64,000 bases of DNA from Eubacteriales bacterium (GTDB lineage Bacteria; Bacillota; Clostridia; Oscillospirales; CAG-272), in NCBI GenBank assembly GCA_045587665.1, contig JAZNCT010000065.1, positions 95 through 64,094 of the forward strand, given 5' to 3'. The notes under the pieces were generated by a model. It searched no databases. It was not told the DNA's origin and saw only the letters and a list, made by a program, of their open reading frames with translations. Of this stretch, positions 19,206-40,715 are shown in pieces; positions within the stretch are counted from its first letter, which is position 1, and every line of letters starts with the position of its first letter. A program made the position numbers and the translations under genes.

Positions 19206-19280
19206 GGCCCGTTGGTCAAGCGGTTAAGACACTAGCCTCTCACGCTGGGAACATGGGTTCGATTCCCGTACGGGTCACCA
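19206..19280 (+). tRNA. tRNA-Glu (anticodon CTC), CCA encoded
   Basis: GGCCCGTTGGTCAAGCGGTTAAGACACTAGCCTCTCACGCTGGGAACATGGGTTCGATTCCCGTACGGGTCACCA forms a cloverleaf with anticodon loop CTCTCAC. Confidence 0.92.
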
Positions 19281-19620
19281 AAAACAAAAGAGCACCACAT
19301 TTGTGGTGCTCTTTTGCTTTTTATGATTCAAACCGAATCGAACCCCACGAAATTCGAAATGAATTTCGTTAGTGCGAGCGTTTGTAAAGAAGCAATCACG
19401 CTAAGCAACAGCGCTCGCTTGGGTTCGATTTCCCGTATGAGCTCACCACATTTGTGGTGCTCTTTTGTTTTTTATGATTCAAACCGAATCGAACCCCACG
19501 AAATTCGAAATGAATTTCGTTAGTGAGAGCGTTTGTAAAAAAGCAATTACGCTAAGCAACGGCGCTTGCTTGGGTTCGATTTCCCGTATGAGCTCACCAC
19601 ATTTGTGGTGCTCTTTTGTT
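19281..19620 (+). repeat. tandem 151-bp repeat (2 units, 145/151 identical) plus three copies of one terminator hairpin
   Basis: caccacattt recurs at 19293, 19444 and 19595. Each unit ends in gggttcgatttcccgtatgagctcacca, a diverged copy of the tRNA-Glu T-arm/acceptor/CCA. Confidence 0.9.
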
Positions 19621-19703
19621 GTTCTCAAACCAAACCTAATTGATCCCCTGAAATCCTTAGGGATTTGTTTTTCAAATTTAAGAACATATATTTACATTAA
19701 AAT

Positions 19704-21919: not shown

Positions 21920-21947
21920 TTGACAAAAAGTCAAATATGTGTATAAT
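21920..21947 (+). promoter_or_regulatory. promoter of aspS
   Basis: TTGACA, 16 nt, TATAAT. Confidence 0.6.
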
Positions 21948-21989
21948 AAATATGATATATTTCTTAATATGATTATGAGGAGAATAAAT

Positions 21990-23777
21990 ATGGCACAGTT
22001 GCTTACAAACAACGATAAACGCACCTGCTACTGCGCAGAGCTTTCCGAAAAGGATATCGGAAAAAAGGTCTGCGTTATGGGCTGGGCACAAAGGCAGAGA
22101 GACCTTGGCGCACTTATTTTCATAGATCTTCGCGACAGAAGCGGAATCATTCAGCTTGCTTTTGACGAGGAAACTAAAAAAGACGTTTTTGATGCGGCAT
22201 TCACTGTTAGAGCAGAATTTGTGCTCTGCGCACACGGAACAGTGCGTGCACGCTCATCCGTAAACCCCAATATTCCAACAGGAAAGATCGAGGTTGCTGT
22301 TTCTGAGCTCAAGATCCTCTCTTCTGCTCAAACACCTCCTTTTGAAATAGTTGAAAACAGCAAGGTCGGCGCAGAGCTTCGTTTGAAGCACCGCTATCTT
22401 GACCTTCGCCGCCCCGATATGCAGGGCAATATCATCGCCAGATCAAGGATAACAAAGATCGCACGTGATTATTATGCAGAAAACGGCTTTATGGATATTG
22501 AGACTCCCTGTCTCATCAAGCCCTCTCCCGAAGGAGCAAGAGACTATCTGGTTCCTTCCCGTGTTCATCCCGGCCGCTTCTATGCTCTCCCCCAGTCCCC
22601 TCAGCTCTACAAGCAGCTTCTTATGGTGTCCGGGTTTGACCGCTATTTCCAGATAGCGCGCTGCTTCCGTGACGAGGATCTGCGTGCTGACCGCCAGCCT
22701 GAGTTCACTCAGCTTGACACCGAAATGTCATTTGCAAGTGCACACGACGTTATGGCAATGCACGAGGGCTTTATCAAATATCTTTGGAAAGAATATTTTG
22801 GCAAAGAGCTTGGATATGACTTTATAAAAATGCCTTACCGTGAGGCTATGGAACGCTTCGGCTCGGACAAGCCCGATATCCGTTTCGGCTTTGAGCTTCG
22901 TGACCTTTCTGCTCTTCTTGCAAATTGCGAATTCAAGGTGTTTGCAGCAGCCATTGCCGAGGGCGGATCGGTTCGTGCTATCAATGTTAAGGGAGGGGCA
23001 CGATTCACCCGTAAGGAAATTGATTCCCTCACCGACTATGTTAAGACATATAAGGCAAAGGGTCTTGCTTGGCTCAAATGGGCAGAGGGGGGAGAAATAT
23101 CTTCTTCCTACGCAAAATTCCTCACAGATGAAGAAAATGAGGCTATCAAAAAGGCTATGGAAGCCCAGGCAGGTGACCTTATACTCATTGTTGCCGATAA
23201 AAACAAGGTAGTTTTCGATGCTCTCGGAAATCTGCGCTGCGAATGTGCAAAGAGACTTGGACTTCTCGATCCTCTTGACTTCAAATTCCTCTGGGTTACT
23301 GAATTCCCACTGCTTGAATGGAGCGAGGAGGATGAACGCTTCTATGCTATGCACCACCCCTTTACCTCTCCTATGGATGAGGATATGCAGTATATAGAAA
23401 GTGATCCCGGCAGAGTGCGCGCAAAGGCATATGACATAGTTCTTAACGGCACAGAGCTTGGCGGCGGCTCGGTTCGTATCCACAGCGAGGATATTCAAAA
23501 GAAGATGTTTGAAATTCTCGGTCTCACGCTGGAAGAAGCAAACGAAAAGTTCGGCTATCTTCTTGAAGCATTCAAATATGGCGTTCCTCCTCATGCAGGC
23601 CTTGCATTCGGTCTTGATCGCCTTGTAACTCTTCTGCTCGGACTTGAGGATATTCGCGATGTTATCGCATTCCCCAAGGTTCAAAACGCAAGTGAGCTTA
23701 TGTCAGGTGCTCCCGGGCCTGCTGACCCCAAGGGTCTTGACGAGCTTTGCATAGCCGTTACAAAAACCGAAGAATGA
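21990..23777 (+). CDS. aspS: aspartate--tRNA ligase
   Basis: OB-fold N-terminus (VMGWAQRQRDLGALIFIDLRDRSG) and class II motifs (FRDEDLRADRQPEFTQLD, GGGSVRIH, GLAFGLDR). ATG 21990 follows GAGGAG. Confidence 0.95.
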   Translation: MAQLLTNNDKRTCYCAELSEKDIGKKVCVMGWAQRQRDLGALIFIDLRDRSGIIQLAFDEETKKDVFDAAFTVRAEFVLCAHGTVRARSSVNPNIPTGKIEVAVSELKILSSAQTPPFEIVENSKVGAELRLKHRYLDLRRPDMQGNIIARSRITKIARDYYAENGFMDIETPCLIKPSPEGARDYLVPSRVHPGRFYALPQSPQLYKQLLMVSGFDRYFQIARCFRDEDLRADRQPEFTQLDTEMSFASAHDVMAMHEGFIKYLWKEYFGKELGYDFIKMPYREAMERFGSDKPDIRFGFELRDLSALLANCEFKVFAAAIAEGGSVRAINVKGGARFTRKEIDSLTDYVKTYKAKGLAWLKWAEGGEISSSYAKFLTDEENEAIKKAMEAQAGDLILIVADKNKVVFDALGNLRCECAKRLGLLDPLDFKFLWVTEFPLLEWSEEDERFYAMHHPFTSPMDEDMQYIESDPGRVRAKAYDIVLNGTELGGGSVRIHSEDIQKKMFEILGLTLEEANEKFGYLLEAFKYGVPPHAGLAFGLDRLVTLLLGLEDIRDVIAFPKVQNASELMSGAPGPADPKGLDELCIAVTKTEE

Positions 23778-24464: not shown

Positions 24465-26042
24465 TCAGTGAAAAGTGAAAAATAAAAATCTCCCCGAGCT
24501 TTGTTCGGGGAGATTTTTTGGCTGGGCGGATGTGATGAAATCCGAACCATCTTGATTCGAAATATCTGATTCTGCGACGGAAAGTGCTTCAAGATCTTTT
24601 TGCACTTCTTCGTAGGTCACCTGTTTTTCTTTATTTATGTTATAGTAGATGACGAGCTTATCATCGTAAACATAAACGGCATTTATGAATGTATCTATCA
24701 TCTGCTGGCGGTAACTTTCATCTGTTACGTTGCCTGTAATGATGGCTTTTAACCAATTTCGATAATCTTCTTTTGTGAATGCATTTTTACTTGTTATCCG
24801 CAAATTTGCTAAGTCGATCTTCATCTCATCGATTTCGAAACTTAATTTCTCTATCTTCTCATTAAGCTTCTTAACCAAAAGCGAATTTTCGGCGTTTGCT
24901 ATCATAAGATCAACGGATGCATTTACCTCGCGTTCGGCTTTTTCGAGAGCTTTTTCCAGTTTCCCGATATTATCTGCCGAAAAATCCTTCTTGTATTGTT
25001 CATCTAACTTTTCCGCGATAAAATCTATTTTCTGAGGAGTAAGTATGTAATTGATGGTTTGCTCAACAACATATCTTTCAAGAACGTCCTTCTTTTCGTT
25101 TTTCTTTTTGCAGGTATGGTGTTTCTTTCGGGTGGCGCAAGTATAATAACGGTGAACGGTTCCGTCTCTTCCCTTGCCGCTCTCGCCTATCATATTAGAA
25201 CCGCACATTCCGCAGAACAGCTTTCCTTGCAACTGATATTTAATTTTGGCTTTCGAAGCAGCGGGTGCTCTTTTATTTGCTGCGATCTTTTCATTTACGA
25301 GCTTGAAAGTTTCATCATCAATTATTCTCGGATATATCTGCGGAATAATCTCATCCTGGAAGTTATACACTCCGATATATTTTTTGTTTCTCAAAATACT
25401 GTGTAGGCTTCCTATATGGAATTTCGATTTTAATCTAGGCTTAACGCCTCGGTCATTAAGATGCTTGACGATGTATGAGAGTCTCGTTCCTTTGGCATAT
25501 TCGTTAAAAATATACTTGACGATTTCTGCTTCGGCTTCATTTATTACGATCTTTTTATCCTTGACCTCGTACCCGTATGAGATAATTCCGCCGGTGAATG
25601 TTCCTCGGCTTCTTGCTACTTTCAGACCTCTTTTCACGTTCTGTGAGAGATTTGCCGAATAATATTCTGCCATACCTTCAAGCATGCTTTCGAGGATAAT
25701 TCCCATCGGATCTTCAGAGATGTTCTCCATGACAGAAACAACCTTGACATCGTTCTTTTTCAATTTTGATTTATATAAAGCACTGTCATAGCGATTTCTT
25801 GAAAATCTGTCCAGTTTATAAACAAGTACAACATCAAACTGTTTTTTCTCGGAGTCCTTGACCATCTGCTGGAACTGAGGACGGTGTTCTGCGTTTGTTC
25901 CCGTGCAGGCTCGGTCTATATAATTACCGATAACAGTGATATTATTTTGTTCTGCATATCTCATGCAGTCTTCTATCTGCCCTTCAATACTGCGTTCTGT
26001 CTGATTATAGCTTGAGTACCGCGCGTATATTACAGCGTTCAT
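24465..26042 (-). CDS. large serine recombinase (phage integrase)
   Basis: N-terminal resolvase domain MNAVIYARYSS...RSIEGQ with the catalytic Ser region, a recombinase domain, a Cys-rich zinc ribbon (CGMCG...YYTC) and a coiled coil. ATG 26042 follows GAAAGGAG. Confidence 0.9.
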   Translation of the reverse strand: MNAVIYARYSSYNQTERSIEGQIEDCMRYAEQNNITVIGNYIDRACTGTNAEHRPQFQQMVKDSEKKQFDVVLVYKLDRFSRNRYDSALYKSKLKKNDVKVVSVMENISEDPMGIILESMLEGMAEYYSANLSQNVKRGLKVARSRGTFTGGIISYGYEVKDKKIVINEAEAEIVKYIFNEYAKGTRLSYIVKHLNDRGVKPRLKSKFHIGSLHSILRNKKYIGVYNFQDEIIPQIYPRIIDDETFKLVNEKIAANKRAPAASKAKIKYQLQGKLFCGMCGSNMIGESGKGRDGTVHRYYTCATRKKHHTCKKKNEKKDVLERYVVEQTINYILTPQKIDFIAEKLDEQYKKDFSADNIGKLEKALEKAEREVNASVDLMIANAENSLLVKKLNEKIEKLSFEIDEMKIDLANLRITSKNAFTKEDYRNWLKAIITGNVTDESYRQQMIDTFINAVYVYDDKLVIYYNINKEKQVTYEEVQKDLEALSVAESDISNQDGSDFITSAQPKNLPEQSSGRFLFFTFH

Positions 26043-26120
26043 CCTGCTCCTTTCTGCATTTTCGTGAGACCACCAAAATGTCAATTCAAATTTGCAATAG
26101 TATGGCATTTTGAATAGATA

Positions 26121-26149
26121 TTGACAAAAATCGGCAGATATGATATACT
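26121..26149 (+). promoter_or_regulatory. promoter of toxin-like mRNA A
   Basis: TTGACA, 17 nt, TATACT, with TG upstream of the -10. Confidence 0.6.
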
Positions 26150-26266
26150 TATCGGCGGAGATCCGAAAGGAGATCCCGGAGAACACCATAAACGGTGGCG
26201 GTTGCTTCCCTTAATCGGGAATGCAGATTTCTTTTGTTTGCCTTCCCGAGAGGGGAGGTGATGCTG

Positions 26267-26356
26267 ATGTTTGTTACATGGGAACTGCTGTTCCTTTTTG
26301 CGGGTTTTATTCTCGCTCTGCTAACCTACATAGATAATCATAACAAAAAGAAATAA
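26267..26356 (+). CDS. 29-aa hydrophobic peptide, candidate type I toxin (holin-like toxin-type)
   Basis: Product is MFVTWELLFLFAGFILALLTYIDNHNKKK. SD GGGGAGG sits 8 nt upstream (ATG 26261 is an alternative start). One TM helix plus a basic tail. A paralog lies at 28280. Confidence 0.6.
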   Translation: MFVTWELLFLFAGFILALLTYIDNHNKKK

Positions 26357-26424
26357 CCGCCTCACTCCCACATAAGGCGGTTATTTCTATAATCGACAGG
26401 GGGCAACCGACATCGGTGCTCTCC
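26340..26424 (-). ncRNA. candidate antisense RNA A (antitoxin) convergent with the peptide gene
   Basis: Minus-strand consensus promoter TTGACA (26459-54), 17 nt, TATAAT (26436-31). Hairpin 26351-86 followed by ctttttgtt on the minus strand gives an RNA of about 85 nt overlapping the ORF 3' end. RNA ends are predicted, not measured. Confidence 0.5.
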
Positions 26425-26479
26425 GTTATTATTATATACCGCTTTATGCTTTTTGTCAATAGTTTTATTTGATTTATGA

Positions 26480-26516
26480 CCATTTTGTTGATGTCAACAA
26501 AATGGCTTTATTTTTT
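26480..26516 (+). terminator. strong plus-strand intrinsic terminator
   Basis: Stem ccattttgttga/tcaacaaaatgg followed by ctttatttttt. It would end a roughly 360-nt toxin mRNA that covers the whole antisense gene. Confidence 0.7.
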
Positions 26517-26547
26517 AAATTCGTAATCGTTTGGAATTTTGGGCTGT

Positions 26548-27651
26548 TTAGATTAACAGCCTTTGTATCTCCGGAATAGGAACTCTTGCTGGCAATACTT
26601 CGCGAGTTATAGCGTTAATTCCGCTTCCGATGTTATGAGCATAATATAAATAGCTATACATTTCCGCCGAGATGTCATTGAAATCCTCACACAGTGATGC
26701 TTTTACTGCATTAGGATAAATCAGTTTACAAACTATATCGGGATTTTCCAAGCACCAAGCGTATTTTTCTCTTTGAAGTTTCAGAGTTTCCGGAAATGCA
26801 AAGCCAATATCGGTTAAAAGGTGCACAGTACGCTTCTGCATTCCAGCTTTAACAATATCTAAAGGAGAAACATCCTCGGAAATACAAACTATGCCATCAC
26901 CAATAGCTTCTACGAGTATATTTTTATCAAGGCAAATATTTTCTAAGCCGTAATAGCTACTCAATATCGTTTCCCTGATTGCTTCAAGCGTTTCTTGTGA
27001 ATATTTATTAAAGAGTTTTGCCGTATATTCAAATTTTTCACATTTTTCTTCGGACAAGAGAGGGAAATCAAAATCAGCGTCTATTTCCCCCTTGCTTCCA
27101 TCTTTGTTCAATACTCCTAAAAGAACAGCCAATCGGTATATATGTTTACATGGCAGTTGACGTTCTTCAAAATCTCTGCAAGTGCATATTAACAAAGAGG
27201 TATCGTAAATCTCTCCACTGCCGATAAACTGTCCCTTTTGCATAGATGAAGATATGATCTCAGGGATACAGTCGACAGATCTATCAAATCTACTCCATTG
27301 TCCGGGTGAATTTGTTGAAGCCCAACAGCCGAATCCGGATATCATACCGGGTACGGCAGTATCGTTCTTCAAAACCTGCTTAACCTCATCTTCTTTTACT
27401 CCGTCTGCGTCTATAACACCGAGCTCTATAGCCAATCTATACATATGTTTGCACGGCATTTTTCTGCTTTTGAAATCAAAACACTCGCAATATTCAAGTG
27501 TTGTATGATATGTTCCGTGGCTTCCGCCGAATTTTCCGAATTTCTCCTCAACAGAAATATTTAAAGGAGTATTTTCTGCTCTTTTTGCTTTTTCAATTCT
27601 TTTATCTTGCCCCACGTAATCATGGCAATCCGACCATTTTGCAAAACTCAT
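26548..27651 (-). CDS. tandem SWIM zinc-finger protein of unknown function
   Basis: Two CxCxnCxH modules, CECFDFKSRKMPCKHMYRLAIELGV and CTCRDFEERQLPCKHIYRLAVLLGV, within a duplicated ~50-aa unit. The C-terminal ~180 aa has no recognised motif. Confidence 0.7.
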   Translation of the reverse strand: MSFAKWSDCHDYVGQDKRIEKAKRAENTPLNISVEEKFGKFGGSHGTYHTTLEYCECFDFKSRKMPCKHMYRLAIELGVIDADGVKEDEVKQVLKNDTAVPGMISGFGCWASTNSPGQWSRFDRSVDCIPEIISSSMQKGQFIGSGEIYDTSLLICTCRDFEERQLPCKHIYRLAVLLGVLNKDGSKGEIDADFDFPLLSEEKCEKFEYTAKLFNKYSQETLEAIRETILSSYYGLENICLDKNILVEAIGDGIVCISEDVSPLDIVKAGMQKRTVHLLTDIGFAFPETLKLQREKYAWCLENPDIVCKLIYPNAVKASLCEDFNDISAEMYSYLYYAHNIGSGINAITREVLPARVPIPEIQRLLI

Positions 27652-27875
27652 ATTGTTCTTACCAACTTTCTTAATATCGATGCCTCAAAATAATTCAATA
27701 AATTTACCTATATGCCCGTGAGGGTTTTTATTCTTTGTTATTACTTAATATTTCTTATTTATACCCATTTTTTACAATAAAATTAAAAAAACGAGACTAT
27801 TTGACAAAACATAACAAATTTTTCCATAAATTTCCATTATAATTAAATTACCAAATTATAGAAGGAGGAAATATT

Positions 27876-27989
27876 ATGGAAAATCAGAATTTACGTGAAG
27901 AACTGAAGTCCATCATTGAAGATGCCGATTTCAGTGAAAATGAACTGAAGATTTTAGTTGAAAAAGCAAAAGAAATTATGAATACATAA
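27876..27989 (+). CDS. 37-aa micro-ORF resembling the C-terminal helix of the neighbouring XRE proteins
   Basis: GAAGGAGG RBS 7 nt upstream. Product is MENQNLREELKSIIEDADFSENELKILVEKAKEIMNT. ELKILV aligns with ELKVLV of the XRE at 28931. Below the ORF-track size cutoff. Confidence 0.5.
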   Translation: MENQNLREELKSIIEDADFSENELKILVEKAKEIMNT

Positions 27990-27993
27990 TTTT

Positions 27994-28095
27994 TGGTTTT
28001 TGCTTTCAATTAAAAACTTCGCAAAAGACTTGAGCTGTTCGAGCTGTTTATCGTTCACCCGATAGATGTGTTTGAACAGCTCTCCTTTTTCTGCA
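27994..28095 (-). pseudogene. 3' remnant of a fourth XRE paralog
   Basis: Minus frame reads GELFKHIYRVNDKQLEQLKSFAKFLIESKNQK, homologous to the XRE C-termini. The HTH part is replaced by toxin module B and the stop codon is lost. Confidence 0.5.
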
Positions 28096-28101
28096 AAGTT
28101 C

Positions 28102-28130
28102 TTGACAAAAATTGTCAGTTGTGATATACT
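28102..28130 (+). promoter_or_regulatory. promoter of toxin-like mRNA B
   Basis: TTGACA, 17 nt, TATACT, homologous to 26121-26149. Confidence 0.55.
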
Positions 28131-28279
28131 TTTCTCGGATACCCGAGAGGGAATCCCGGAGAACACCATTACGGTGGCGGTTGCTTCCTTTCTTTAATTA
28201 CGAAAGGAACATCTTTGCTCCTTTCGATTAACATTGAAAGGAGTGGTGCTTATGATTTTCATTATGCACCTTGTTGAGC

Positions 28280-28357
28280 ATGGTTACATACGAAGCCTTA
28301 TTTGCTTTTGCTATGGTACTTATTGCGCTTGCGGCTTTATTTATCGACCGCAAATGA
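28280..28357 (+). CDS. 25-aa hydrophobic peptide, paralog of the 26267 peptide (possibly decaying)
   Basis: MVTYEALFAFAMVLIALAALFIDRK aligns with VTWELLFLFAGFILALLTYID. Relative to copy A, extra sequence of about 28 nt separates the SD (28236-43) from the homologous reading frame, and the SD-proximal ATG 28252 is out of frame with it. Confidence 0.45.
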   Translation: MVTYEALFAFAMVLIALAALFIDRK

Positions 28358-28359
28358 TA

Positions 28360-28446
28360 ACAAAAAAAGATAACCGCCTGACTTCCCAATCTAAACGGTT
28401 ATCTTTTAACTATTAGTACTGGGAGCAACCGTCATCGGTGCTCTCC
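28360..28446 (-). ncRNA. candidate antisense RNA B
   Basis: Minus-strand TTGACA (28481-76), 17 nt, TATAAT (28458-53). Hairpin 28367-28406 followed by tttttgtt on the minus strand. Confidence 0.45.
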
Positions 28447-28486
28447 GTTATTATTATATACCGCTTTTTATGTTTTGTCAATAGTT

Positions 28487-28903
28487 TTATTTGTTTTTGC
28501 TCTCATCTAAATATTTTATAAAAACTTTGAGCTGTTCGAGCTGTTCATCGGTCATTTGATCGATGCAAACGAACAGCTCTTTTTTATTATTGTCTATAGG
28601 CGATGCCGGGGCGGCTTCTTCTTTACCCAAAAGGAAATCAATCGATACGCCGAAATAGTCGGCTATATGATTTAACATTGATTTTATGTGCTCAAATAGC
28701 TCTTTCTCGTTGCCTTCTATTGGTGATGCTGGGGGATTTTCCTCTTTTTCTAAAAGATATTCTACCGATACATCAAAATAGTCAGCAATTTTCCTTAAAG
28801 TTGTTTGCCTTGGTACTGTATTATTATCCCAACACGAGAATGCTGCACCCGAAAGCCCAATAGCTTTGCATACTGCCGTAGGTGCTACATTTTTTTCGAA
28901 CAT
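28487..28903 (-). CDS. XRE-family HTH protein with internally duplicated linker module
   Basis: HTH region CKAIGLSGAAFSCWDNNTVPRQTTLRKIADYF. The segment IADYFxVSxxxLLxKEExxPASPIxxNxKELF occurs twice. C-terminal helix DQMTDEQLEQLKVFIKYL. Confidence 0.8.
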   Translation of the reverse strand: MFEKNVAPTAVCKAIGLSGAAFSCWDNNTVPRQTTLRKIADYFDVSVEYLLEKEENPPASPIEGNEKELFEHIKSMLNHIADYFGVSIDFLLGKEEAAPASPIDNNKKELFVCIDQMTDEQLEQLKVFIKYLDESKNK

Positions 28904-28930
28904 AATTTTATAAAAATATCTTTGAACATA

Positions 28931-29254
28931 TTACTTATCGTTTTTATTATCGATTAAATATTTCACCAAAACTTTGAGTTCTTGAATTTGTTCATCGGTC
29001 ATCTGATCGATGTGATCGAACAGTTCTTTTTTATTTTCATCAGCAGGTGAGGATGGGGCGGCTTTTTCTTTTTCTAAAAGATGTTCTACCGATACCTCAA
29101 AATAGTCAGCAATCTTCTGTAAATTTTTAGTGTTTGGCATAGCACCGTTTTTCCACTTTGTAATCGAGCCATGAGCAATGCCAATTTCTTTGACCACTTG
29201 CAACGGCTTCATTCTTTTTTCAGTGCAAAGATTATAAAAGTTATTCCAAAACAT
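28931..29254 (-). CDS. XRE-family HTH protein
   Basis: HTH region VVKEIGIAHGSITKWKNGAMPNTKNLQKIADYF plus the same C-terminal module. ATG 29254 lies 1 nt after the upstream stop (the track start at 29272 is TTG). Confidence 0.8.
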   Translation of the reverse strand: MFWNNFYNLCTEKRMKPLQVVKEIGIAHGSITKWKNGAMPNTKNLQKIADYFEVSVEHLLEKEKAAPSSPADENKKELFDHIDQMTDEQIQELKVLVKYLIDNKNDK

Positions 29255-29255
29255 T

Positions 29256-29579
29256 CTATTTTCTGCTATCAATTAAAAACTTCGCATAAGACTTGAGCTG
29301 TTCTAGTTGGTCAGCGGTCATTCGGTCGATGTGATCAAATAATTCTTTTTTGTTGTCATCTAAAGGTGATGCTGGGACGGTTTCTTCTTTTCCTAAAAGA
29401 TAATCTACCGATACTCCAAAATAGTCGGCTATTTGTGGAAGATATTTAGTGTAAGAGTTACTTTTGCCGCTTTTCCAATCGCTGAAAGCTTGTTTACCAA
29501 CTCCTAGATGTTCACATAAATCTTTTTGTTTTTTTGATTGAATAGATAATTCTTTTATAATATTGTTCAAAATATGCAA
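29256..29579 (-). CDS. XRE-family HTH protein, probable prophage repressor (CI-like)
   Basis: HTH region LCEHLGVGKQAFSDWKSGKSNSYTKYLPQIADYF. The track start 29732 lies inside its own promoter. TTG 29579 after AGGTAAG is the first plausible start, but it remains uncertain. Confidence 0.65.
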   Translation of the reverse strand: MHILNNIIKELSIQSKKQKDLCEHLGVGKQAFSDWKSGKSNSYTKYLPQIADYFGVSVDYLLGKEETVPASPLDDNKKELFDHIDRMTADQLEQLKSYAKFLIDSRK

Positions 29580-29637
29580 AAATCTTACCTGCCTTTCGTT
29601 TATATTCAACGAAATTCGAAAAAATCTTATTTTTGTC

Positions 29638-29666
29638 TTGACAGTAAGATATTTTCGTACTATAAT
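29638..29666 (+). promoter_or_regulatory. rightward early (lytic) promoter
   Basis: Consensus TTGACA, 17 nt, TATAAT. Confidence 0.65.
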
Positions 29667-29687
29667 GTTATTGCAAACAAAAAAATG

Positions 29688-29732
29688 TTTTACTGTTGCT
29701 TTTATTATACAGTAAAAAGATGTTTTTGTCAA
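29688..29732 (-). promoter_or_regulatory. leftward repressor promoter with 9-bp inverted repeat over the -10
   Basis: Minus strand reads TTGACA (29732-27), 17 nt, TATAAT (29709-04). Inverted repeat TTTTACTGT (29688-96) / ACAGTAAAA (29709-17). Confidence 0.6.
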
Positions 29733-29760
29733 GGAAAGTTATAAATAAAGGAGAGGAAAA

Positions 29761-29988
29761 ATGCCAAAGTATCTAACCCGCAAGGAAAAGAAAATCATTA
29801 AGAACCTCAAAGAAAGCTTGACGGCTATGAGTGACACCATGAACAAAGAAGTCTTGAAGCGTTCAAACGAGGGCGCACTCATGACAGATGAAGAGTTGGA
29901 GCGGATGTCACGAACCGAATATCTGATTTCACTTACGCTTCTCTGTCTCGAACGCTTTGAAGAGGCAAAGAGAGGGGGCAAGAGATGA
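29761..29988 (+). CDS. hypothetical early protein (75 aa)
   Basis: GGAGAGG RBS. First gene of the rightward transcript. Helical and charged. Confidence 0.55.
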   Translation: MPKYLTRKEKKIIKNLKESLTAMSDTMNKEVLKRSNEGALMTDEELERMSRTEYLISLTLLCLERFEEAKRGGKR

Positions 29989-30236
29989 AAGACAAAAGGT
30001 ATGAAATGATTTTGGAGAATAGCAGAGATGCACTGCTTGACGCTTCGAGAGCATTAAAGAAAGAAACCGAAAAGCTTAAAAGTGCAAAAGTGCCTGATCT
30101 CACCGCTTCAATGAAGCTATGCGAGGCTCTACATTCCGCATCTTTCGCTTTACTCCGCATGGAAGGGGTCAATGAACCGCTATCTCCCATCGGAGAGTAT
30201 ATTTCAAACAATGTACTTAATTACAAATTTATTTAA
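29985..30236 (+). CDS. hypothetical early protein (83 aa), paralog of next gene
   Basis: Overlapping start and stop. ILENSRDALLDASRALKKETEKLKS aligns with IISNVKDALLDYTKVLKSDVKKSIS of the next gene. Confidence 0.55.
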   Translation: MKDKRYEMILENSRDALLDASRALKKETEKLKSAKVPDLTASMKLCEALHSASFALLRMEGVNEPLSPIGEYISNNVLNYKFI

Positions 30237-30249
30237 AAAGGAGCTTATT

Positions 30250-30504
30250 ATGAACGCACAAACTTACAAGTACAACCCAACCGAAAAAGACCTTGAAATT
30301 ATCTCAAATGTTAAGGACGCTCTGCTTGATTACACCAAGGTGTTGAAAAGCGACGTCAAAAAAAGCATTTCCGATGGTAATGCAACCTCGGAAATGCTTG
30401 ACGGAAGAATTAGAATGCTCGGCTATGTTATGTCCCCTCTTCGTGCCTGCAAAACAATTGAGGGGGATTCTGAATCTGTCACTCAGTATTTTTCCCATTC
30501 GTAA
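30250..30504 (+). CDS. hypothetical early protein (84 aa)
   Basis: AAGGAG RBS before ATG 30250. The track start 30172 is rejected. Confidence 0.55.
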   Translation: MNAQTYKYNPTEKDLEIISNVKDALLDYTKVLKSDVKKSISDGNATSEMLDGRIRMLGYVMSPLRACKTIEGDSESVTQYFSHS

Positions 30505-30725
30505 AGATCTGTGGGGGCGTCACCTTCGGGGTACTGACCGTCAAGGATATCCCATTCAAAACACCCGGTAACATGACAGTATACATTGCTTGCGAGTGCA
30601 ACAGGATCGCTTGCCTCTCCATAAATCTGATTATCAAGAATCAGAGCATATTTTCCGCTTTCCGAACGGAATTTGATAATAAATGTACCAACAGAACTTT
30701 CAAATTTCCACATAACAACACCCAT
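30483..30725 (-). CDS. hypothetical protein (about 76-80 aa) with its own copy of the repressor-type promoter
   Basis: Product begins MGVVMWKFESSVGTFIIKFRSESGKYALILDNQIYG. The track start 30809 lies inside promoter 30801-29. Start is ATG 30725 or 30713, both with a weak RBS. Confidence 0.45.
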   Translation of the reverse strand: MGVVMWKFESSVGTFIIKFRSESGKYALILDNQIYGEASDPVALASNVYCHVTGCFEWDILDGQYPEGDAPTDLYEWEKY

Positions 30726-30800
30726 TTTTAATTTTTTACCAAAGCAAATTTTAACATGAATTTCAAAATTATCAATAAAAATTGTTTTACCGTTGCTTTC

Positions 30801-30829
30801 ATTATACAACGAAAAGCAGTTTTTGTCAA
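30801..30829 (-). promoter_or_regulatory. second copy of the leftward promoter module
   Basis: Minus strand reads TTGACA, 17 nt, TATAAT. Region 30775-30860 is a diverged duplicate of 29681-29763. Confidence 0.55.
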
Positions 30830-30856
30830 GAAAAGAAGTAAACAGGAGGTAAAAAT

Positions 30857-31063
30857 ATGAGTTACAACGAAATCAAGGCCCATTTGGCACTGCTCGGCAA
30901 GACCGGGCGAGACGTGATCGAGGAGTTGCGCCGCAGGGGTATCAACGTTAGCGACAGCACTTTCAGCAAGGCAATAAAGAACGTCGACAGCTCCCCGGCT
31001 ATTCAAAGGATCAGAAATGAAACCATAACTATTCTTAACGAATGGCAAGAACCAAAAAAATGA
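30857..31063 (+). CDS. small putative DNA-binding protein (Cro/Cox-like by position)
   Basis: 68 aa, AGGAGG RBS, helix-rich and basic (GRDVIEELRRRGINVSDSTFSKAIKN). The functional call rests on context only. Confidence 0.35.
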   Translation: MSYNEIKAHLALLGKTGRDVIEELRRRGINVSDSTFSKAIKNVDSSPAIQRIRNETITILNEWQEPKK

Positions 31064-31224
31064 AAAAAGCAACCGCAAATGAAATAAAAAATCCCTGCAA
31101 AGTATTGAGCGGTAGCTCGAACACCTTGTCAAATATAGTAAAAAATGAATAAGTGCGGCGAAATACGTGCGCACCATTTCGGAGACAAGGCTCAAAATAA
31201 CAATTGATATTTAAGGAGACACTT

Positions 31225-31461
31225 ATGAACGGGAGCAACAGAGAAAACAGAATAGTCAAGGGCATTGTTTGCTACAGGAATGATGACGGTTCTTTCAGCG
31301 ATGATATTGATGAAATCTACTGCGACGAATCTGAAGCCGAAGAGCTGACCGAATATGAAAAAACAAAGCTCACATATTTTGCGGAGAAGGTTCTCGCTCC
31401 CATGTTCATTAAGTACGTAAGGACATTAGAGGAGCGCAGGAATGCACCTTCAAATAGATAA
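31225..31461 (+). CDS. hypothetical protein (78 aa)
   Basis: AAGGAG RBS before ATG 31225. Confidence 0.5.
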   Translation: MNGSNRENRIVKGIVCYRNDDGSFSDDIDEIYCDESEAEELTEYEKTKLTYFAEKVLAPMFIKYVRTLEERRNAPSNR

Positions 31462-31475
31462 AAAGGAGAAAAAAC

Positions 31476-31886
31476 ATGAAAAAGATTATCGGAAAGATCC
31501 GCTTTGGTGGGAACGAGCTGGCGTTCAGCTTTGGCAATGGCAAAATGGACGTTGATGTGGAGACCATGAGAGACTTCACGGCAAAAGAACAGGAGACCGT
31601 GAATGAGGTCATCGGCGACATTGCCCGCATCTGCGCAAAGCTGACGAACAGAATCCATTACGAGAGCGAAACAACGAAAGCCTTTGCATGGCTTCCCAAG
31701 CTCTTCCCCACAAAAAAAGTACTTCAAAAAGAAGAACACCGCACTTTAAACACATTGTCCGCAAATTTCGGCAGCGGCGCAAAGAGAATACCCGATACCG
31801 AGCATTCTGACAGATTTTATATTGAGCTTGGCGGAATGAGGCTTATAGAAGAAAATGGCATCATCGTCGGCTGGTATGTGCCGTGA
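31476..31886 (+). CDS. hypothetical protein (136 aa)
   Basis: AAGGAG RBS. No motif recognised. Confidence 0.55.
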   Translation: MKKIIGKIRFGGNELAFSFGNGKMDVDVETMRDFTAKEQETVNEVIGDIARICAKLTNRIHYESETTKAFAWLPKLFPTKKVLQKEEHRTLNTLSANFGSGAKRIPDTEHSDRFYIELGGMRLIEENGIIVGWYVP

Positions 31887-32011
31887 GAGAAATATGGAAA
31901 AGGAAAGATTCACCCCACTGCCGAAATCGGTGGCGGAGAAGATTATTTTGAAGGTTTACAGTCGATTTTTCGACCTGCGGCAGACGAAGATCATGAAAGG
32001 AGCGGGCGGTA

Positions 32012-32233
32012 ATGGATAGCGAAAAAACAACCCCGGCGGAGCATGCGAAAATGACGCTGGCTATTGCGATGGCTAAAGAAAACATTCGTCTCTCCGAAAA
32101 GGGAACTATCAAAGAGGAGCGCAGCGACATCAGAGCCTTAATTCTCGAAGGTGCGTTTCTGATTCTCGAAGATGAGCGATCGCGCCATGAAGATAAAAAT
32201 GCTCCGATAATCGATACAAAGAGGTGGCTATGA
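32012..32233 (+). CDS. hypothetical protein (73 aa)
   Basis: ORF in the co-oriented early operon. Confidence 0.45.
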   Translation: MDSEKTTPAEHAKMTLAIAMAKENIRLSEKGTIKEERSDIRALILEGAFLILEDERSRHEDKNAPIIDTKRWL

Positions 32234-32430
32234 TGGAGACTGTAAGAAACAAGATATACCGTGCCGCAGTATGGATATTAACAATAATTTGCACGCTGAT
32301 TGGATTCTGGATGCTCATATCCTTCTTTGACATTGTGACCCACAACATGGAGAGCTATGCCGGCTACGGTGAGTATCTTGAATGGAATTTCTTCACAACG
32401 ATGTGGGATGTTATCAGGGGGCAGACATGA
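32224..32430 (+). CDS. small membrane protein (68 aa)
   Basis: Hydrophobic helix AAVWILTIICTLIGFWMLISFF. Overlapping start and stop codons with both neighbours. Confidence 0.5.
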   Translation: MAMMETVRNKIYRAAVWILTIICTLIGFWMLISFFDIVTHNMESYAGYGEYLEWNFFTTMWDVIRGQT

Positions 32431-34913
32431 ATTACGACAATTTTTTAAAGGCAAAGGCGATCAGTGCGCCTGTCTCGGGCTTTGACGTTCCGCTCGATGA
32501 GATAAATGATAATCTGAAGCCTCATCAGAAAATAGCGGTACAGTGGGCTGTAAAGGGCGGCAGGCGTGCGCTTTTTGAAGCCTTCGGTCTCGGAAAGACA
32601 GCTCAGCAGCTCGAATACTGCCGTCTTGTTACCGAGCACACGGGCGGAAGGGCTCTCATTGTCCTACCTCTCGGAGTAAAGCAGGAGTTCACAGAGGATG
32701 CGGTAAATCTTTTAGGGCTCGAAAGTCCGCCATACATAAAATCACAAGAGGAAGCAAATGCGACCGATGCAAAGATCCTCATAACCAACTACGAGAGGGT
32801 GAGAGACGGTAACATAGACCCGAGGACCTTTGACTGCTGCTGTCTCGATGAAGCCAGCGTTCTCCGTTCCTTTGGCTCAAAGACCTATCAGACCTTCGTA
32901 GACAAATTCCGCGGAGTTCCCTATAAGCTCGTTGCGACCGCAACACCCGATCCCAACAAATACAAGGAACTGATACATTACGCAGGTTTTCTCGAGATCA
33001 TGGACACCGGACAGGCTCTTACACGCTTCTTTCAGCGCGACAGCACAAAGGCAAACAATCTGACAATATACCCACATAAGGAAGAGGAGTTTTGGCTCTG
33101 GATATCAACATGGGCGTTCTTCCTTTCGACTCCCGCCGATCTCGGCTTTGATGCGGAAGGCTATGATCTTCCGCCGCTGGATATTCGTTATCACTGCGTT
33201 AAGGATATGAGCTCTCCGACATTTGACCGTGACGGACAGATGCAGATGTTCCGTGATGTTTCTGCAGGACTGACGGAAGCCGCAAGAGAAAAGCGTGAGA
33301 GCATCGAAGCCCGTGCAGATAAGATGCTTGAGATAATCGAGAGCGACCCCGAAGCTCGTTTTATCCTTTGGCATGATCTGGAGGATGAACGACACGCCAT
33401 AAAAAAGAGGATCCCCTCTGCCACCGAGATATACGGTGCGCAAGACATTGATCTGAAGGAAAAGCATGTCATAGATTTTGCCCACGGAAGGATCAAATAT
33501 CTTGCAACTAAAAAGGAGATCAGCGGACAGGGCTGTAACTTTCAGCGGCACTGCCACAGGGCGATCTTTATGGGCATAGATTACAAATTCAACGATTTTA
33601 TTCAGGCGATACACCGCATTTACCGTTTTCTTCAGAAGGAAAAGGTCATTATCGACATAATCTACACCGAAAATGAAACCAGTGTTCTCCGTGAGCTTCA
33701 AGAAAAATGGCAGAGGCATGACGAGCAGACCGAGAAAATGCGCGAGATCGTGAAAAAATACGGCATCTATACCGAAAAGTTAGTGGAAAAGATGCAAAGA
33801 AGCATAGGAGTTGAGCGAGTGGAAGTCAAAGGAGCATATTTCACGGCAGTCAACAATGATTGCATACTTGAAACGAGAAAGATGGAAACCGACAGCGTCG
33901 GTCTTATACATACCTCTATCCCTTTTTCGAATCATTATGAATATACACCGTCCTATAACGATTTCGGGCACAACGAAGACAATGATAAATTCTTTGATCA
34001 GATGGACTATCTGACCCCGGAGCTTCTTCGGGTCCTTAAGCCCGGCAGAGTGGCGGCGGTGCACGTCAAGGACAGAGTTCTCTTCGGCAACGCCACGGGT
34101 GACGGTATGCCGACGATAGATCCTTTTTCCGAAATGACGGTATTTCACTTCATGAAGCACGGCTTTAGGTATATGGGAAGGATAACGGTTGTTACAGACG
34201 TTGTAAGAGAAAACAATCAGACTTACCGGCTTGGTTGGAGTGAGCAATGCAAGGACGGCTCAAAAATGGGCGTAGGATGTCCCGAATATATCCTTCTGTT
34301 CCGCAAACTTCCGTCAGATACCTCAAAGGCATATGCAGATGAACCGGTTACCAAGACCAAAGAGGAATATACAAGAGCGCAGTGGCAGATCGATGCACAC
34401 GCCTTTGAGCGTTCTTCGGGCGACAGGCTTATTACCAAAGAAGAGCTTATGGAGACGGACGTATCAAAACTACAGAAGCTCTATACAAAATACAGCCGCG
34501 ATAATGTTTACAGCTACAAAGAGCATGTGGAACTGGCTAAAAAGCTTGACGGAGAGGGAAAATTGCCCGCTACATTTATGGTGGTAGCTCCTGCATCATG
34601 GTCTGATATGGTATGGGATGATATAAACCGCATGAGGACGCTGAACAGCACTCAGGCAAGACGAAAGCTGCAGATGCACGTCTGCCCCTTGCAGCTCGAT
34701 ATCGTTGAGCGCATTATAAACCGTTATTCAAACGAGGGCGATCTCGTATATGACCCCTTTGGCGGTCTTATGACGGTACCTATGACGGCGGTTAAAATGG
34801 GTAGAAGAGGCTATGGCTGTGAGCTTAACCCGGAATATTTCCGTGACGGCGTTGGGTATCTGAAAGCCGCCGAAGATGAAATGGAAACACCGACACTTTT
34901 TGATGTTATTTAA
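32427..34913 (+). CDS. SNF2/DEAD-like helicase domain fused to an N6/N4 DNA methyltransferase domain
   Basis: Helicase motifs GLGKT and CLDEAS. C-terminal beta-class MTase with HTSIPFSN (motif IV position) before DPFGGLMTVP (AdoMet motif). ATG 32427 follows AGGGGG. Confidence 0.8.
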   Translation: MNYDNFLKAKAISAPVSGFDVPLDEINDNLKPHQKIAVQWAVKGGRRALFEAFGLGKTAQQLEYCRLVTEHTGGRALIVLPLGVKQEFTEDAVNLLGLESPPYIKSQEEANATDAKILITNYERVRDGNIDPRTFDCCCLDEASVLRSFGSKTYQTFVDKFRGVPYKLVATATPDPNKYKELIHYAGFLEIMDTGQALTRFFQRDSTKANNLTIYPHKEEEFWLWISTWAFFLSTPADLGFDAEGYDLPPLDIRYHCVKDMSSPTFDRDGQMQMFRDVSAGLTEAAREKRESIEARADKMLEIIESDPEARFILWHDLEDERHAIKKRIPSATEIYGAQDIDLKEKHVIDFAHGRIKYLATKKEISGQGCNFQRHCHRAIFMGIDYKFNDFIQAIHRIYRFLQKEKVIIDIIYTENETSVLRELQEKWQRHDEQTEKMREIVKKYGIYTEKLVEKMQRSIGVERVEVKGAYFTAVNNDCILETRKMETDSVGLIHTSIPFSNHYEYTPSYNDFGHNEDNDKFFDQMDYLTPELLRVLKPGRVAAVHVKDRVLFGNATGDGMPTIDPFSEMTVFHFMKHGFRYMGRITVVTDVVRENNQTYRLGWSEQCKDGSKMGVGCPEYILLFRKLPSDTSKAYADEPVTKTKEEYTRAQWQIDAHAFERSSGDRLITKEELMETDVSKLQKLYTKYSRDNVYSYKEHVELAKKLDGEGKLPATFMVVAPASWSDMVWDDINRMRTLNSTQARRKLQMHVCPLQLDIVERIINRYSNEGDLVYDPFGGLMTVPMTAVKMGRRGYGCELNPEYFRDGVGYLKAAEDEMETPTLFDVI

Positions 34914-34924
34914 GGAGAAAAACT

Positions 34925-35638
34925 ATGCACTTCGAAACTATAAAACGAGACGAGATCCTGCCGATAATAGATCAGGCAAAAGACAGCGAGGAGCAGAAGG
35001 ATATTCTATGCGATCTTCTCGACTGCTCAAAAAAGGAGCTTAACGCTCTTGTTAAAGAGCTGCGTGCAGAGAGGGATAGCACAACAGCGAAAGAAAGCAC
35101 CTCCGGTGAATCGGCTCACATGGATGTCAGAAACAAACGCTGGACCCCGGAGGACTTGGAGAAGCTGAGCAAGCTTCATAAATCCGGAAAGACCTCAAAA
35201 GAAATTGCCGCAGAGCTTGGCAGAAGCACCACGGCCGTTATAAACAAGCTGAGACAGCTCGGGGTATCTGACCGATCGGAGCAGGACGCTCTTGTTCGTG
35301 CAGTTGCCACAAATGATGAGCTTGCAGAGATCGCAGCATATGCAGGTGAGCTTGAAGGGCTTATCAATAAAAAAGACGCAGAGATCCTGACGCTGCAGAG
35401 TGCGCTTGATGCTTCGTCTGCAGAAAAGGATCGTTATAACGAGGAGCTTGAGGCGGCGTGGAAAACAGCAGATGAAAAGGAAAAAGCACTTTCTGTGACA
35501 GAGGAGCGGTTGAAGAGCTTGAGGGAGCTTCTTATGAAATACGACCGCAAGCAGACCGTTCTCTCGTCGGCTCTGGCAAAATCTCTTGAATTTATCGCGT
35601 CGATGAACGCCATTATAGGGGAGGTGCTTAAAGCATGA
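34925..35638 (+). CDS. GcrA-like HTH protein with C-terminal coiled coil
   Basis: RWTPEDLEKLSKLHKSGKTSKEIAAELGRSTTAVINKLRQLGVS aligns residue by residue with the recalled GcrA N-terminus (WT.E....L..L...G.S...IA..LG..T.NAVI.K..RLG.S). Confidence 0.6.
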   Translation: MHFETIKRDEILPIIDQAKDSEEQKDILCDLLDCSKKELNALVKELRAERDSTTAKESTSGESAHMDVRNKRWTPEDLEKLSKLHKSGKTSKEIAAELGRSTTAVINKLRQLGVSDRSEQDALVRAVATNDELAEIAAYAGELEGLINKKDAEILTLQSALDASSAEKDRYNEELEAAWKTADEKEKALSVTEERLKSLRELLMKYDRKQTVLSSALAKSLEFIASMNAIIGEVLKA

Positions 35639-35994
35639 ATGAGAATGTATGCAAGCACTGCGGGCAGGTGGTAATGCCCGGAATGAGCTGTGACTGCCCG
35701 GGCGCCGTGGCAGAAGCACGAACCGAGATACAGAAGGCGAAGGCGCATGAAGCTATTGATACTCTTTTCGGAGAGGGATGCAAAGCCGATGGATATGAAC
35801 CTATCAGCGAGGAAGAGCTTCGGGCCCTCAAAAAGCTCGCTGATTATGTTGCCGAGCGCAAGCTGATATCCGCCTCCGCTCTTCTCGGCGGCGGCGTTAA
35901 GGCAAAGTTTGTCAGAGGAAGCGAAGGCAGGGTTAAGATCGAGCGCAGTGAGAGTAAGAAGTCGCAGACTGAGATAGGCTATTGGAGTAACTGA
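35635..35994 (+). CDS. hypothetical protein with N-terminal Cys cluster
   Basis: CKHCGQVVMPGMSCDC. 119 aa. Confidence 0.5.
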   Translation: MNENVCKHCGQVVMPGMSCDCPGAVAEARTEIQKAKAHEAIDTLFGEGCKADGYEPISEEELRALKKLADYVAERKLISASALLGGGVKAKFVRGSEGRVKIERSESKKSQTEIGYWSN

Positions 35995-36176
35995 AAATGG
36001 CGAAAATCCGAAGCAAAAGTGATAGAGAAAGTTGTGTGCATTATATAAAGCTCTTTAATATGCCCTTTTGTACATACGGCGCAAACGAAAACAATTTGAT
36101 GGACTCGCTGAGAAATCAACCTTGCGACATTAGGCACAAATGTCCCCTTGAAGAAAATGAAAAAGGAGAAACCACC

Positions 36177-37514: not shown

Positions 37515-37786
37515 CAACAGCTGAGGCGAAGTGGGCCTTTGATAATGGTGTAATGGTCAGCCTTGAGATAGACCCAATAAAGCAAACACGTGCTTTTTAT
37601 AAATACATATGTGAGATTGGATATCGCCGCCGAAGGGACGGCAAGGTCTATTTGTTTGTCACCTGCTTTGACAGGTTTGCAAACAGTGAGACAAGAACAA
37701 CGGTGAGTGACGTTATGTTTGCACGGAAGGAGGATGAGGAGCGATGCCACAGAGAACTGGGTATCCAAAACGTACAGGTCTTGTGA
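37511..37786 (+). CDS. hypothetical protein (91 aa)
   Basis: Start overlaps the upstream stop. No motif recognised. Confidence 0.5.
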   Translation: MTTAEAKWAFDNGVMVSLEIDPIKQTRAFYKYICEIGYRRRRDGKVYLFVTCFDRFANSETRTTVSDVMFARKEDEERCHRELGIQNVQVL

Positions 37787-38262
37787 AGAAAGAACCGAAC
37801 GGGCGGTTTTATGTAGAGGGAGTGGATATTTCCGCTCTCTCTCCTGAGCTTTACAGCTGCTTATGGAAGCTGAAAGACTATGAGGAGAGCGGAATGTCGC
37901 CTTCGGACGTGGAAACGCTGAAGAACATCTATGACGATGCTTGCAAAACGATAAATAAATTGCGCCGTGAGTGTGACGAGATGCGCCGAAAGCTCATTGA
38001 GCTTCCCATCCGTCCGGGCGATACCATATATGACTGTTCCGAGTTTTTCACCGAAAAGGCGTATCCGGGCATAAAGACTATCGAGGTCAGCTCGGTAGAG
38101 ATATCGAAGGATAAGGACACCGGGCATTACCGCTATACCGTCTGCGAAAAAGGCTTTATAAAAGCCTCCTACCACCGTGAGGACTTCGGTACCAAAGTAT
38201 TTCTTGACCAAAAGAAAGCACAGATGTGCGCTGAGATGAAAGCGAGGGAGAGGGGACTATGA
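37744..38262 (+). CDS. hypothetical protein
   Basis: An alternative coupled start is GTG 37783, overlapping the upstream TGA. Confidence 0.5.
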   Translation: MPQRTGYPKRTGLVKKEPNGRFYVEGVDISALSPELYSCLWKLKDYEESGMSPSDVETLKNIYDDACKTINKLRRECDEMRRKLIELPIRPGDTIYDCSEFFTEKAYPGIKTIEVSSVEISKDKDTGHYRYTVCEKGFIKASYHREDFGTKVFLDQKKAQMCAEMKARERGL

Positions 38263-38616: not shown

Positions 38617-38628
38617 ACAAATAATAAA

Positions 38629-38649
38629 ACCACCGCACATGGCGGTGGT
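38629..38649. terminator. hairpin between convergent genes
   Basis: Stem accaccgc/gcggtggt. Confidence 0.45.
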
Positions 38650-38657
38650 ATGGATTT

Positions 38658-40700: not shown

Positions 40701-40715
40701 CGGAGGTGATAAGGC

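Follow-up and report, generated by a model that had tools for sequence, protein, structure and literature searches.

A predicted type I toxin-antitoxin module of the TxpA/BsrG/SprG superfamily with a bsrG-like 5′-3′ helix in a prophage of an uncultured Clostridia bacterium

Locus A, at positions 26121-26516 of a 64,000-nucleotide (nt) stretch of Clostridia DNA, is most probably a type I toxin-antitoxin module of the TxpA/BsrG/SprG (Pfam Hol_Tox) superfamily. The whole analysed stretch is called the window, and all feature positions are window coordinates. The module appears to be built like bsrG/SR4, with a toxin mRNA that would read through the hairpin after the ORF and with predicted locking of the Shine-Dalgarno (SD) sequence on antisense binding; we put the probability of this reading at roughly 0.8. 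An original prediction made from the letters alone had described a type I toxin-antitoxin-like locus with a layout of the txpA/RatA and bsrG/SR4 kind. Every feature it listed for locus A was found in its place on inspection of the sequence, and the reading is borne out by a Pfam match of the peptide and by conservation of the promoters, SD hairpin, open reading frame (ORF) and antisense terminator in 32 copies of the module. As judged from the sequence, the likeness of layout also holds. Two elements of the locus, a second terminator (T2) and an inverted repeat between the leader and the 3′ region, were not part of that prediction. The features of locus A are as follows.

26121..26149, + strand: toxin promoter, TTGACA (26121-26), 17 nt and TATACT (26144-49), with a TG extension at 26141-42; 11/12 consensus match, predicted transcription start site (TSS) ~26156.
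26156..26516, + strand: predicted full-length toxin mRNA, ~360 nt, as suggested by X:Y covariation and T2.
26157..26176, + strand: P1 hairpin (GGAgaUCC GAAA GGAgaUCC) at the mRNA 5′ end, seen in folds and strongly covarying.
26177..26210, + strand: X, the 5′ strand of a long-range helix, CGGAGAACACC, a bulge and CGGUGGCGGUUGCUUCCC; from duplex calculation, RNAalifold and covariation.
26217..26228, + strand: P3R, CGGGAAUGCAGA, in folds an alternative partner of the GCUUCCC of X or of the anti-SD.
26237..26248, + strand: anti-SD segment, UUUGCCUUCCCG.
26252..26258, + strand: SD, GGGGAGG, opposite CCTTCCC (26241-47) and base-paired in every predicted form.
26267..26356, + strand: toxin ORF of 29 amino acids (aa), MFVTWELLFLFAGFILALLTYIDNHNKKK, with TAA at 26354-56; from Pfam Hol_Tox, homologues and coding-type substitutions.
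26349..26388, both strands: T1 hairpin, overlapping and directly following the stop codon; intrinsic terminator of the antisense RNA, with covariation in RNAalifold.
26399..26425, + strand: Y, GGGGGCAACCGACAUCGGUGCUCUCCG, which is complementary to X and provides the 3′ strand of the long-range helix; from duplex calculation, RNAalifold and covariation.
26338..26424, − strand: predicted antisense antitoxin RNA, ~87 nt, with an imperfect 5′ hairpin resembling X, a spacer and the terminator.
26431..26459, − strand: antitoxin promoter, TTGACA (26459-54), 17 nt and TATAAT (26436-31); 12/12 consensus match, predicted TSS ~26424.
26480..26516, + strand: T2, an intrinsic terminator with an 11-bp stem followed by CTTTATTTTTT; probable 3′ end of the toxin mRNA.

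Homology searches used the mechanical 53-aa ORF at 26195-26353 as the query and returned 52 genomic loci. The first 31 were metagenome-assembled genomes (MAGs) of ruminant gut samples, labelled Clostridia, Oscillospiraceae, Ruminococcus, Lachnospiraceae or Eubacteriales, and the copy from roe deer colon (L002) was 98% identical. For the alignment, 32 full copies were used: the two of the window and 30 that lie on 25 contigs of Clostridia MAGs from ruminant guts. The module of locus A is more than a chance arrangement, because it is duplicated at 28089-28497 (locus B) and because 30 further copies keep its signals and ORF. The blocks stand in a conserved order: P1, X, a GGGAA-type segment, anti-SD, SD, ORF, T1, Y, antisense −10 and antisense −35. 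Two exact-pattern scans of viral contigs gave zero matches in one and a single chance match, in the high-GC contig L001, in the other, and blastn against phage genomes returned short AT-rich chance matches only. Some copies lie in arrays. L003 carries four (X core at 3001, 5189, 5573 and 5959), three of them complete with Y, and two copies each were found in L022, L028 and L030. The tandem arrays run head-to-tail, with the next sense promoter immediately past the preceding antisense promoter.

The peptide scored 30.0 bits (E 4.5e-7) against Pfam PF16935 Hol_Tox, above the gathering cut-off of 23.3, in agreement with the family resemblance that the original prediction had suggested. It contains a hydrophobic run of about 20 residues, FVTWELLFLFAGFILALLTY, followed by the tail DNHNKKK, as read from the sequence, and both are conserved in homologues. 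In these respects it appears to fit the general shape of type I toxins, that is, fewer than 60 aa, one hydrophobic membrane-spanning segment and a charged C-terminus. The best NCBIfam match was ComI (NF052249) at 27.5 bits, below its cut-off of 55. Variable columns of the ORF fall at codon positions 1, 2 and 3 in numbers of 18, 8 and 25, so that the third position is favoured, and synonymous codon differences exceed non-synonymous ones (2876 vs 1701). An intact ORF was found in 28/28 A-type copies, always starting at one position with either ATG or GTG; the RNA is thus not kept without the peptide, as a pure RNA element would be. Protein homologues formed 49 clusters, mostly 60-97% identical to the query ORF. 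The peptide, with fewer than 60 aa, is inconsistently called by gene finders, and many of the homologues in the protein collection are longer ORFs extending into the leader.

The peptides TxpA, BsrG and SprG1, scored from manually entered sequences, reached 31.3, 34.5 and 34.6 bits against Hol_Tox. The 'holin-like toxins' have been equated with the TxpA family, TxpA-like sequences are present in Clostridiales, and an antisense RNA of ~110 nt was detected over the 3′ UTR (untranslated region) of E. faecalis EF3263 (Fozo 2010, PMC2887945). The Hol_Tox family already has described antisense partners, since TxpA, BsrG and SprG1 pass its cut-off and RatA, SR4, SprF and the EF3263 small RNA are known; the original prediction, which knew of no described partner, needs correction on this point. 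The Clostridia entry for TxpA-like sequences in a 2019 review is Clostridium bolteae only (PMC6563280), and a literature search on type I systems in rumen bacteria returned nothing relevant. The clostridial modules are a new subfamily of the already known TxpA/BsrG type.

The promoter and terminator evidence agrees with the claim that a convergent antisense RNA gene lies over the 3′ end of the toxin mRNA. Besides its perfect hexamers, the minus-strand promoter has a −35 (TGTCAA on the + strand) that is invariant in 32/32 copies and a −10 that is invariant or nearly so. The T-run of the antisense RNA (26348-26338) is the complement of the Lys codons of the toxin. The antisense RNA folds with a minimum free energy (MFE) of −34.8 kcal/mol and a z of −5.2. 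On the sense side, the −35 and most of the −10 of the toxin promoter are invariant or nearly invariant, the mRNA leader is ~111 nt long, and the ATG at 26267 begins 8 nt past the SD.

Unexpectedly, X in the leader is complementary to Y, which lies past T1 on the same strand. As the reverse complement of Y, the 5′ domain of the antisense RNA is alike to the leader and not complementary to it. RNAduplex energies of cognate X:Y pairs ranged from −39 to −53 kcal/mol (mean −47.3), compared with −18.7 when Y was shuffled and −41.8 in non-cognate combinations, and RNAalifold on the whole + strand alignment recovered the X:Y helix unprompted. When the ~28-bp helix was written as an explicit 28-pair structure, 94.1% of cells were paired, while slid registers gave 40-54%. 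Compensatory double changes were found in 12 pairs and 52 cells; shuffles gave 13.1 +/- 3.6, and 0/500 of them reached the observed value. Individual cases include GGUUGC/GCAACC changed to GGUAC/GUACC in L018 and L025, matched 1-nt deletions on the X and Y sides in L027 and L028, C-G changed to U-A in L022b, and CGGAGAG/CUCUCCG changed to CGUAGGAG/CUCCUACG in L022a. The pairing RNA must be the + strand, because one G.U pair (118:395) is present in 31/32 copies, another in 25/32, and many further variable wobbles occur on the + strand, all of which would become C.A mismatches on the minus strand. The helix is present in the single-sequence MFE structure of 28/32 copies. Energies with enforced pairs were partly below the unconstrained MFE, an artefact of forced non-canonical pairs, so only counts from MFE structures were used.

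Other parts of the leader are conserved as structure. In P1, RNAalifold pairs 66-70:90-94 with 9-12 double changes each. In the SD hairpin, pairs 170-176:192-198 are kept in 25-30 of the 32 copies, with some double changes. The 3′ end of X, GCUUCCC, is a possible second anti-SD, and P3R variants in L018, L021, L026 and L029 keep their complementarity. Alternative pairings are possible because four segments are mutually compatible, namely the GCUUCCC of X, the GGGAA segment, the anti-SD and the SD. In one copy (L032:946-1405) the anti-SD/SD hairpin contains an insertion of ~75 nt, between GAGAGG and GAGGAGGTG.

The modelled accessibility of the SD depends on which of these segments the RNA contains. 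The mean cost of opening GGAGG was 9.4 kcal/mol for an RNA ending at T1, 4.0 kcal/mol for an RNA including Y, and 9.2 kcal/mol for an RNA with Y in which the antisense target was blocked. The direction of this change across the three RNA forms was identical in 29/29 copies. In the short form the modelled probability of an unpaired SD was 0-0.03.

Three other pairings were considered and rejected. Direct pairing of the antisense 5′ domain with the SD, in the manner of SprA1as, would allow only 5-7 bp, and Y follows changes in X and not in the SD (e.g. L022b). An antiterminator formed by the leader and the left arm of T1 (GGCGGUU:AACCGCC) is contradicted by changes in X that are uncompensated there. 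A par-like complementarity of leader and antisense RNA failed the strand check, which showed the two to be alike.

The original prediction had taken the T1 hairpin as a terminator shared by both RNAs. This stands for the antisense RNA; for the sense RNA it does not, as the covariation requires extension to 26399-26425. The longest U-run at T1 is at least 5 on the antisense side in 31/31 scored copies, and 2-4 on the sense side in 31/32 copies. T1 is, on its sequence, a good terminator for the antisense RNA only. The toxin mRNA probably reads through T1 and ends near 26516, because the X:Y covariation needs one + strand RNA holding both X and Y. A hairpin and T-run on the + strand, at or slightly past the antisense −35, was seen in roughly half to two-thirds of copies. 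In L016, L023, L024, L027 and L028, just 3′ of Y, a terminator-like hairpin of the + strand holds the antisense −35 in its stem or loop (for example GGGAGTTGAC-TT-GTCAACTCC, then TTTTTT); sense termination and antisense initiation therefore use the same DNA.

These results suggest the following scheme. The toxin mRNA would pass T1 to the terminator at ~26516, and its 3′ UTR would then contain the antisense target in full. With X paired to Y, the SD would be guarded by one partner and only weakly locked, at ~4 kcal/mol. The 5′ domain of the antisense RNA, having the same sense as X, would pair with Y and displace X, and the freed X together with the local anti-SD would lock the SD at ~9 kcal/mol. 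By analogy with RatA and SR4, the duplex of toxin mRNA and antisense RNA would probably be cut by RNase III. In transcripts stopping at T1, X would be free and the SD doubly locked.

Several points weigh against this scheme, or against the assignment on which it builds. The X:Y helix of locus A itself is the weakest of the family (−38.7 kcal/mol, with an A.C mismatch and GACAU for GUCAU), and folds of locus A that extend past Y give an MFE structure with a local Y hairpin and not X:Y. The SD is still mostly paired in the modelled long form (probability unpaired 0.04-0.51). T1 is terminator-like in the sense direction too and may halt a large share of the transcripts; downstream of Y, no + strand terminator was detectable in about a third to half of copies. 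In Rfam, no match reached its cut-off for the leader or the antisense RNA at gathering or permissive thresholds, and the model of the BsrG RNA itself (RF01412) scored 18.5 bits against a cut-off of 55 (OrzO-P 20.8 against 60). The Hol_Tox scores of TxpA, BsrG and SprG1, moreover, come from manually entered sequences.

A more elaborate form of the scheme can be put forward tentatively, and we regard it as somewhat less probable than even. It would be a 'two-key' variant of bsrG/SR4 with the antisense gene, together with its promoter, nested in the 3′ UTR and T1 acting as a leaky attenuator. Y, present only on read-through RNAs, would activate translation by drawing the anti-SD segment of the leader off the SD, and no other RNAs than these would carry the full antisense target; the antisense 5′ domain would be an evolved mimic of the leader that wins Y by strand displacement. 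If this were true, the helix joining the mRNA ends would have an activating effect, opposite to that in hok and aapA1.

One competing explanation is that the anatomy of the original prediction is right: both RNAs end at the shared hairpin at 26349-88, their sole contact is a terminator overlap of ~45 nt, like the loop-loop kissing of par, and that the likeness of leader and antisense RNA has another cause. Read in either direction, T1 does have an A-tract, a GC-rich stem and a U-rich tail, and the long-form MFE structure of locus A lacks X:Y. We nevertheless consider it unlikely, as the compensation in the family (the deletions of L027/L028 and the GGUAC/GUACC swap of L018/L025) needs one RNA with X and Y, the sense-side U-tract of T1 is consistently poor, and in both bsrG and a Lactobacillus homologue the mRNA terminator follows the 3′ strand. 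It is less credible still, and hardly to be expected, that the X/Y inverted repeat acts in DNA, as protein operators, a recombination site, ends like those of miniature inverted-repeat transposable elements, or arms homogenised by gene conversion. The repeat is indeed symmetric around the ORF, just within the two convergent promoters, and locus A adjoins a serine recombinase. Homogenisation is excluded by fixed differences between the arms in nearly all copies (X GGUGGCGG vs GAUGACGG in the antisense sense), and these differences are G.U-compatible on the + strand only. Moreover, X has a bulge of 4-8 nt and Y has none, recombinases were found at only 2 of the other loci, and an RNA helix of the same topology has been probed in bsrG.

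Instead of an RNA-controlled toxin, the peptide might also be a holin for prophage lysis or a competence inhibitor like ComI, with the antisense promoter incidental. Pfam calls the family 'holin-like', the best NCBIfam match is ComI, and the locus is within a prophage. The ComI score, however, is far below its cut-off, and the locus belongs to the integrase/repressor module, where it lies between the integrase and the repressor genes, a long way from the terminase and the late genes. A PHROGs search with the peptide gave no match and no lysis cassette was recognised, the late genes not having been scanned for endolysin. Most family members are chromosomal with housekeeping genes alongside, and every one of the 32 copies keeps the hexamers of the antisense promoter. 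We judge this explanation very improbable. The type I module with read-through and SD locking is preferred to all three.

Among known systems, bsrG/SR4 of the B. subtilis SPbeta prophage is the closest. Nt 1-35 of bsrG mRNA pair with nt 232-262 in helix P1 of that RNA (Jahn & Brantl 2013, PMC3834814), and once SR4 has bound, nt 1-33 are single-stranded and the SD helix is extended from 4 to 8 bp (PMC3834814). Locus A shares with it the Pfam family, the prophage site, a convergent 3′-overlapping antisense RNA, an SD in a helix, and a long 5′-3′ helix that closes the mRNA and whose 3′ half is part of the antisense target. In both, the antisense terminator is the complement of the hairpin at the ORF end; that antisense binding frees the 5′ strand and tightens the SD is predicted for locus A and shown for bsrG. 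T1 would correspond to SL3, Y to the 3′ half of bsrG P1, and T2 to the mRNA terminator. The two differ in that the locus A antisense RNA is ~87 nt against 180 nt for SR4, that the SD of locus A is guarded by two CUUCCC-type segments, that there is no nucleotide similarity, and that the host of locus A is an uncultured Clostridia bacterium. In the clostridial modules the antisense promoter is found either within the mRNA terminator or in the stretch separating it from Y, whereas the SR4 promoter lies beyond it; because of this position the mRNA 3′ UTR contains the antisense gene as a nested unit.

The toxins of txpA/RatA (B. subtilis skin; E. faecalis EF3263) and SprG/SprF (S. aureus) are likewise above the Hol_Tox cut-off, have 3′-overlapping cis-antisense RNAs, and occur at mobile-element sites or in multiple chromosomal copies. 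Their antisense RNAs are longer, and the nested arrangement has not been described for them. RatA binding leaves the SD helix unchanged, and RatA is thought to act via RNase III-dependent decay only (PMC3834814). With hok/sok and aapA1/IsoA1, locus A shares a conserved end-to-end helix of the toxin mRNA that governs translatability. In those systems the helix inactivates the mRNA and hides the 5′ antisense target, and 3′ trimming activates it. The helix of locus A, by contrast, is modelled to lower the SD opening cost, and its antisense RNA would target the strand of the helix that comes from the mRNA 3′ region. There is no relationship between the toxin families, and hok/sok and aapA1/IsoA1 have Gram-negative hosts. 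The par system (fst/RNAII of Enterococcus pAD1) also has convergent RNAs with a shared bidirectional terminator and involvement of the 5′ regions. Its direct repeats, however, give complementary 5′ ends, while the inverted repeats of locus A give 5′ ends that are alike, and its toxin belongs to the Fst family.

A distant homologue, MSVYEAISLMLLFGTFVLALLTYIDNHNKK, is encoded at L039:2914-3216 of Lactobacillus taiwanensis DSM 21401. A 5′-3′ helix is predicted there between GAGCGGUGGCU and AGCCGCCGCUC, an antisense-type T1-like hairpin lies directly after the stop codon, and a canonical mRNA terminator follows the 3′ strand. An extended −10, TGcTATAAT, for the antisense RNA lies beyond the mRNA terminator.

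The second copy in the window, locus B, lies ~2 kb downstream of locus A, with which it has in common an 80-nt block containing the antisense promoter.

28089..28497, + strand: locus B, a paralogous module with both promoters, X, T1 and Y as in locus A; peptide MVTYEALFAFAMVLIALAALFIDRK, ATG at 28280.

Its peptide is of a different subtype and scored 20 bits against Hol_Tox, below the 23.3 cut-off. Downstream of the SD of locus B, AAGGAG (28238-43), there is an ATG (28252) in a frame other than that of the toxin ORF, and the SD is separated from the true start codon by a conserved hairpin, GGUGC(16-17 nt)GCACC (28245-28270). In L022b (L022:3293-3693), a copy of the locus B subtype, the loop ATG is in yet another frame. 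Locus B may have a structured spacer between SD and start, or may be a translationally crippled copy. A fragment at 27990-28088, directly upstream of it, is related to the repeats of the helix-turn-helix (HTH) genes listed below.

Locus A lies where the window passes from host genes into a prophage; the host gene aspS (aspartyl-tRNA synthetase, 21939-23777) is just outside. The left end of the prophage has the order serine recombinase, locus A, SWIM protein, locus B, HTH genes, SNF2/methylase, ParB-like protein and terminase, and a gene for a GcrA-like protein is also present in this part (24465-43879).

24465-26045, − strand: large serine recombinase.
26548-27651, − strand: SWIM zinc-finger protein.
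28474-29441, − strand: three tandem Cro/CI-type HTH genes, whose 3′ portions are repeated (direct-repeat families of 99-202 nt, 66-76% identity).
32382-34913: SNF2/DNA-methylase fusion.
35997-37514: ParB-like protein.
41966-43879: terminase large subunit.

The position next to an integrase, noted in the original prediction, holds at locus A. It is not a property of the family, because a recombinase was found at only 2 of the other 30 loci, whose neighbours are mostly housekeeping genes, e.g. the ilv operon. Prophages and related elements with type I modules include SPbeta (bsrG and yonT), skin (txpA) and C. difficile phiCD630 (PMC6563280). Since such modules at the lysogeny end are known from bsrG, yonT, txpA and phiCD630, locus A likely serves, by analogy, in stabilisation or maintenance of the prophage. 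Elsewhere in the window, a tRNA gene (19206-19277) is directly followed by ~2.4 tandem copies of a 151-nt unit (19293-19648, 96% identity); these repeats could be duplicated remnants of an attachment site.

Locus A leaves the current understanding of type I systems unchanged. It extends the TxpA/BsrG type I family, with the full architecture of its RNA control, to uncultured ruminant-gut Clostridia (labelled Oscillospiraceae, Ruminococcus or Eubacteriales), and its conserved RNA blocks could be used for annotating small-toxin loci. The 32-copy alignment gives unusually clean covariation for a 5′-3′ helix whose 3′ strand is the antitoxin target, an arrangement experimentally established earlier only for bsrG. 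The most useful product of the analysis is this covariation evidence that the bsrG-type 5′-3′ switch persists from Bacilli to Clostridia. Because covariation supports the helix in the clostridial copies, the refolding mechanism of bsrG/SR4 looks, from these sequences, ancient and general and not a peculiarity of Bacillus.

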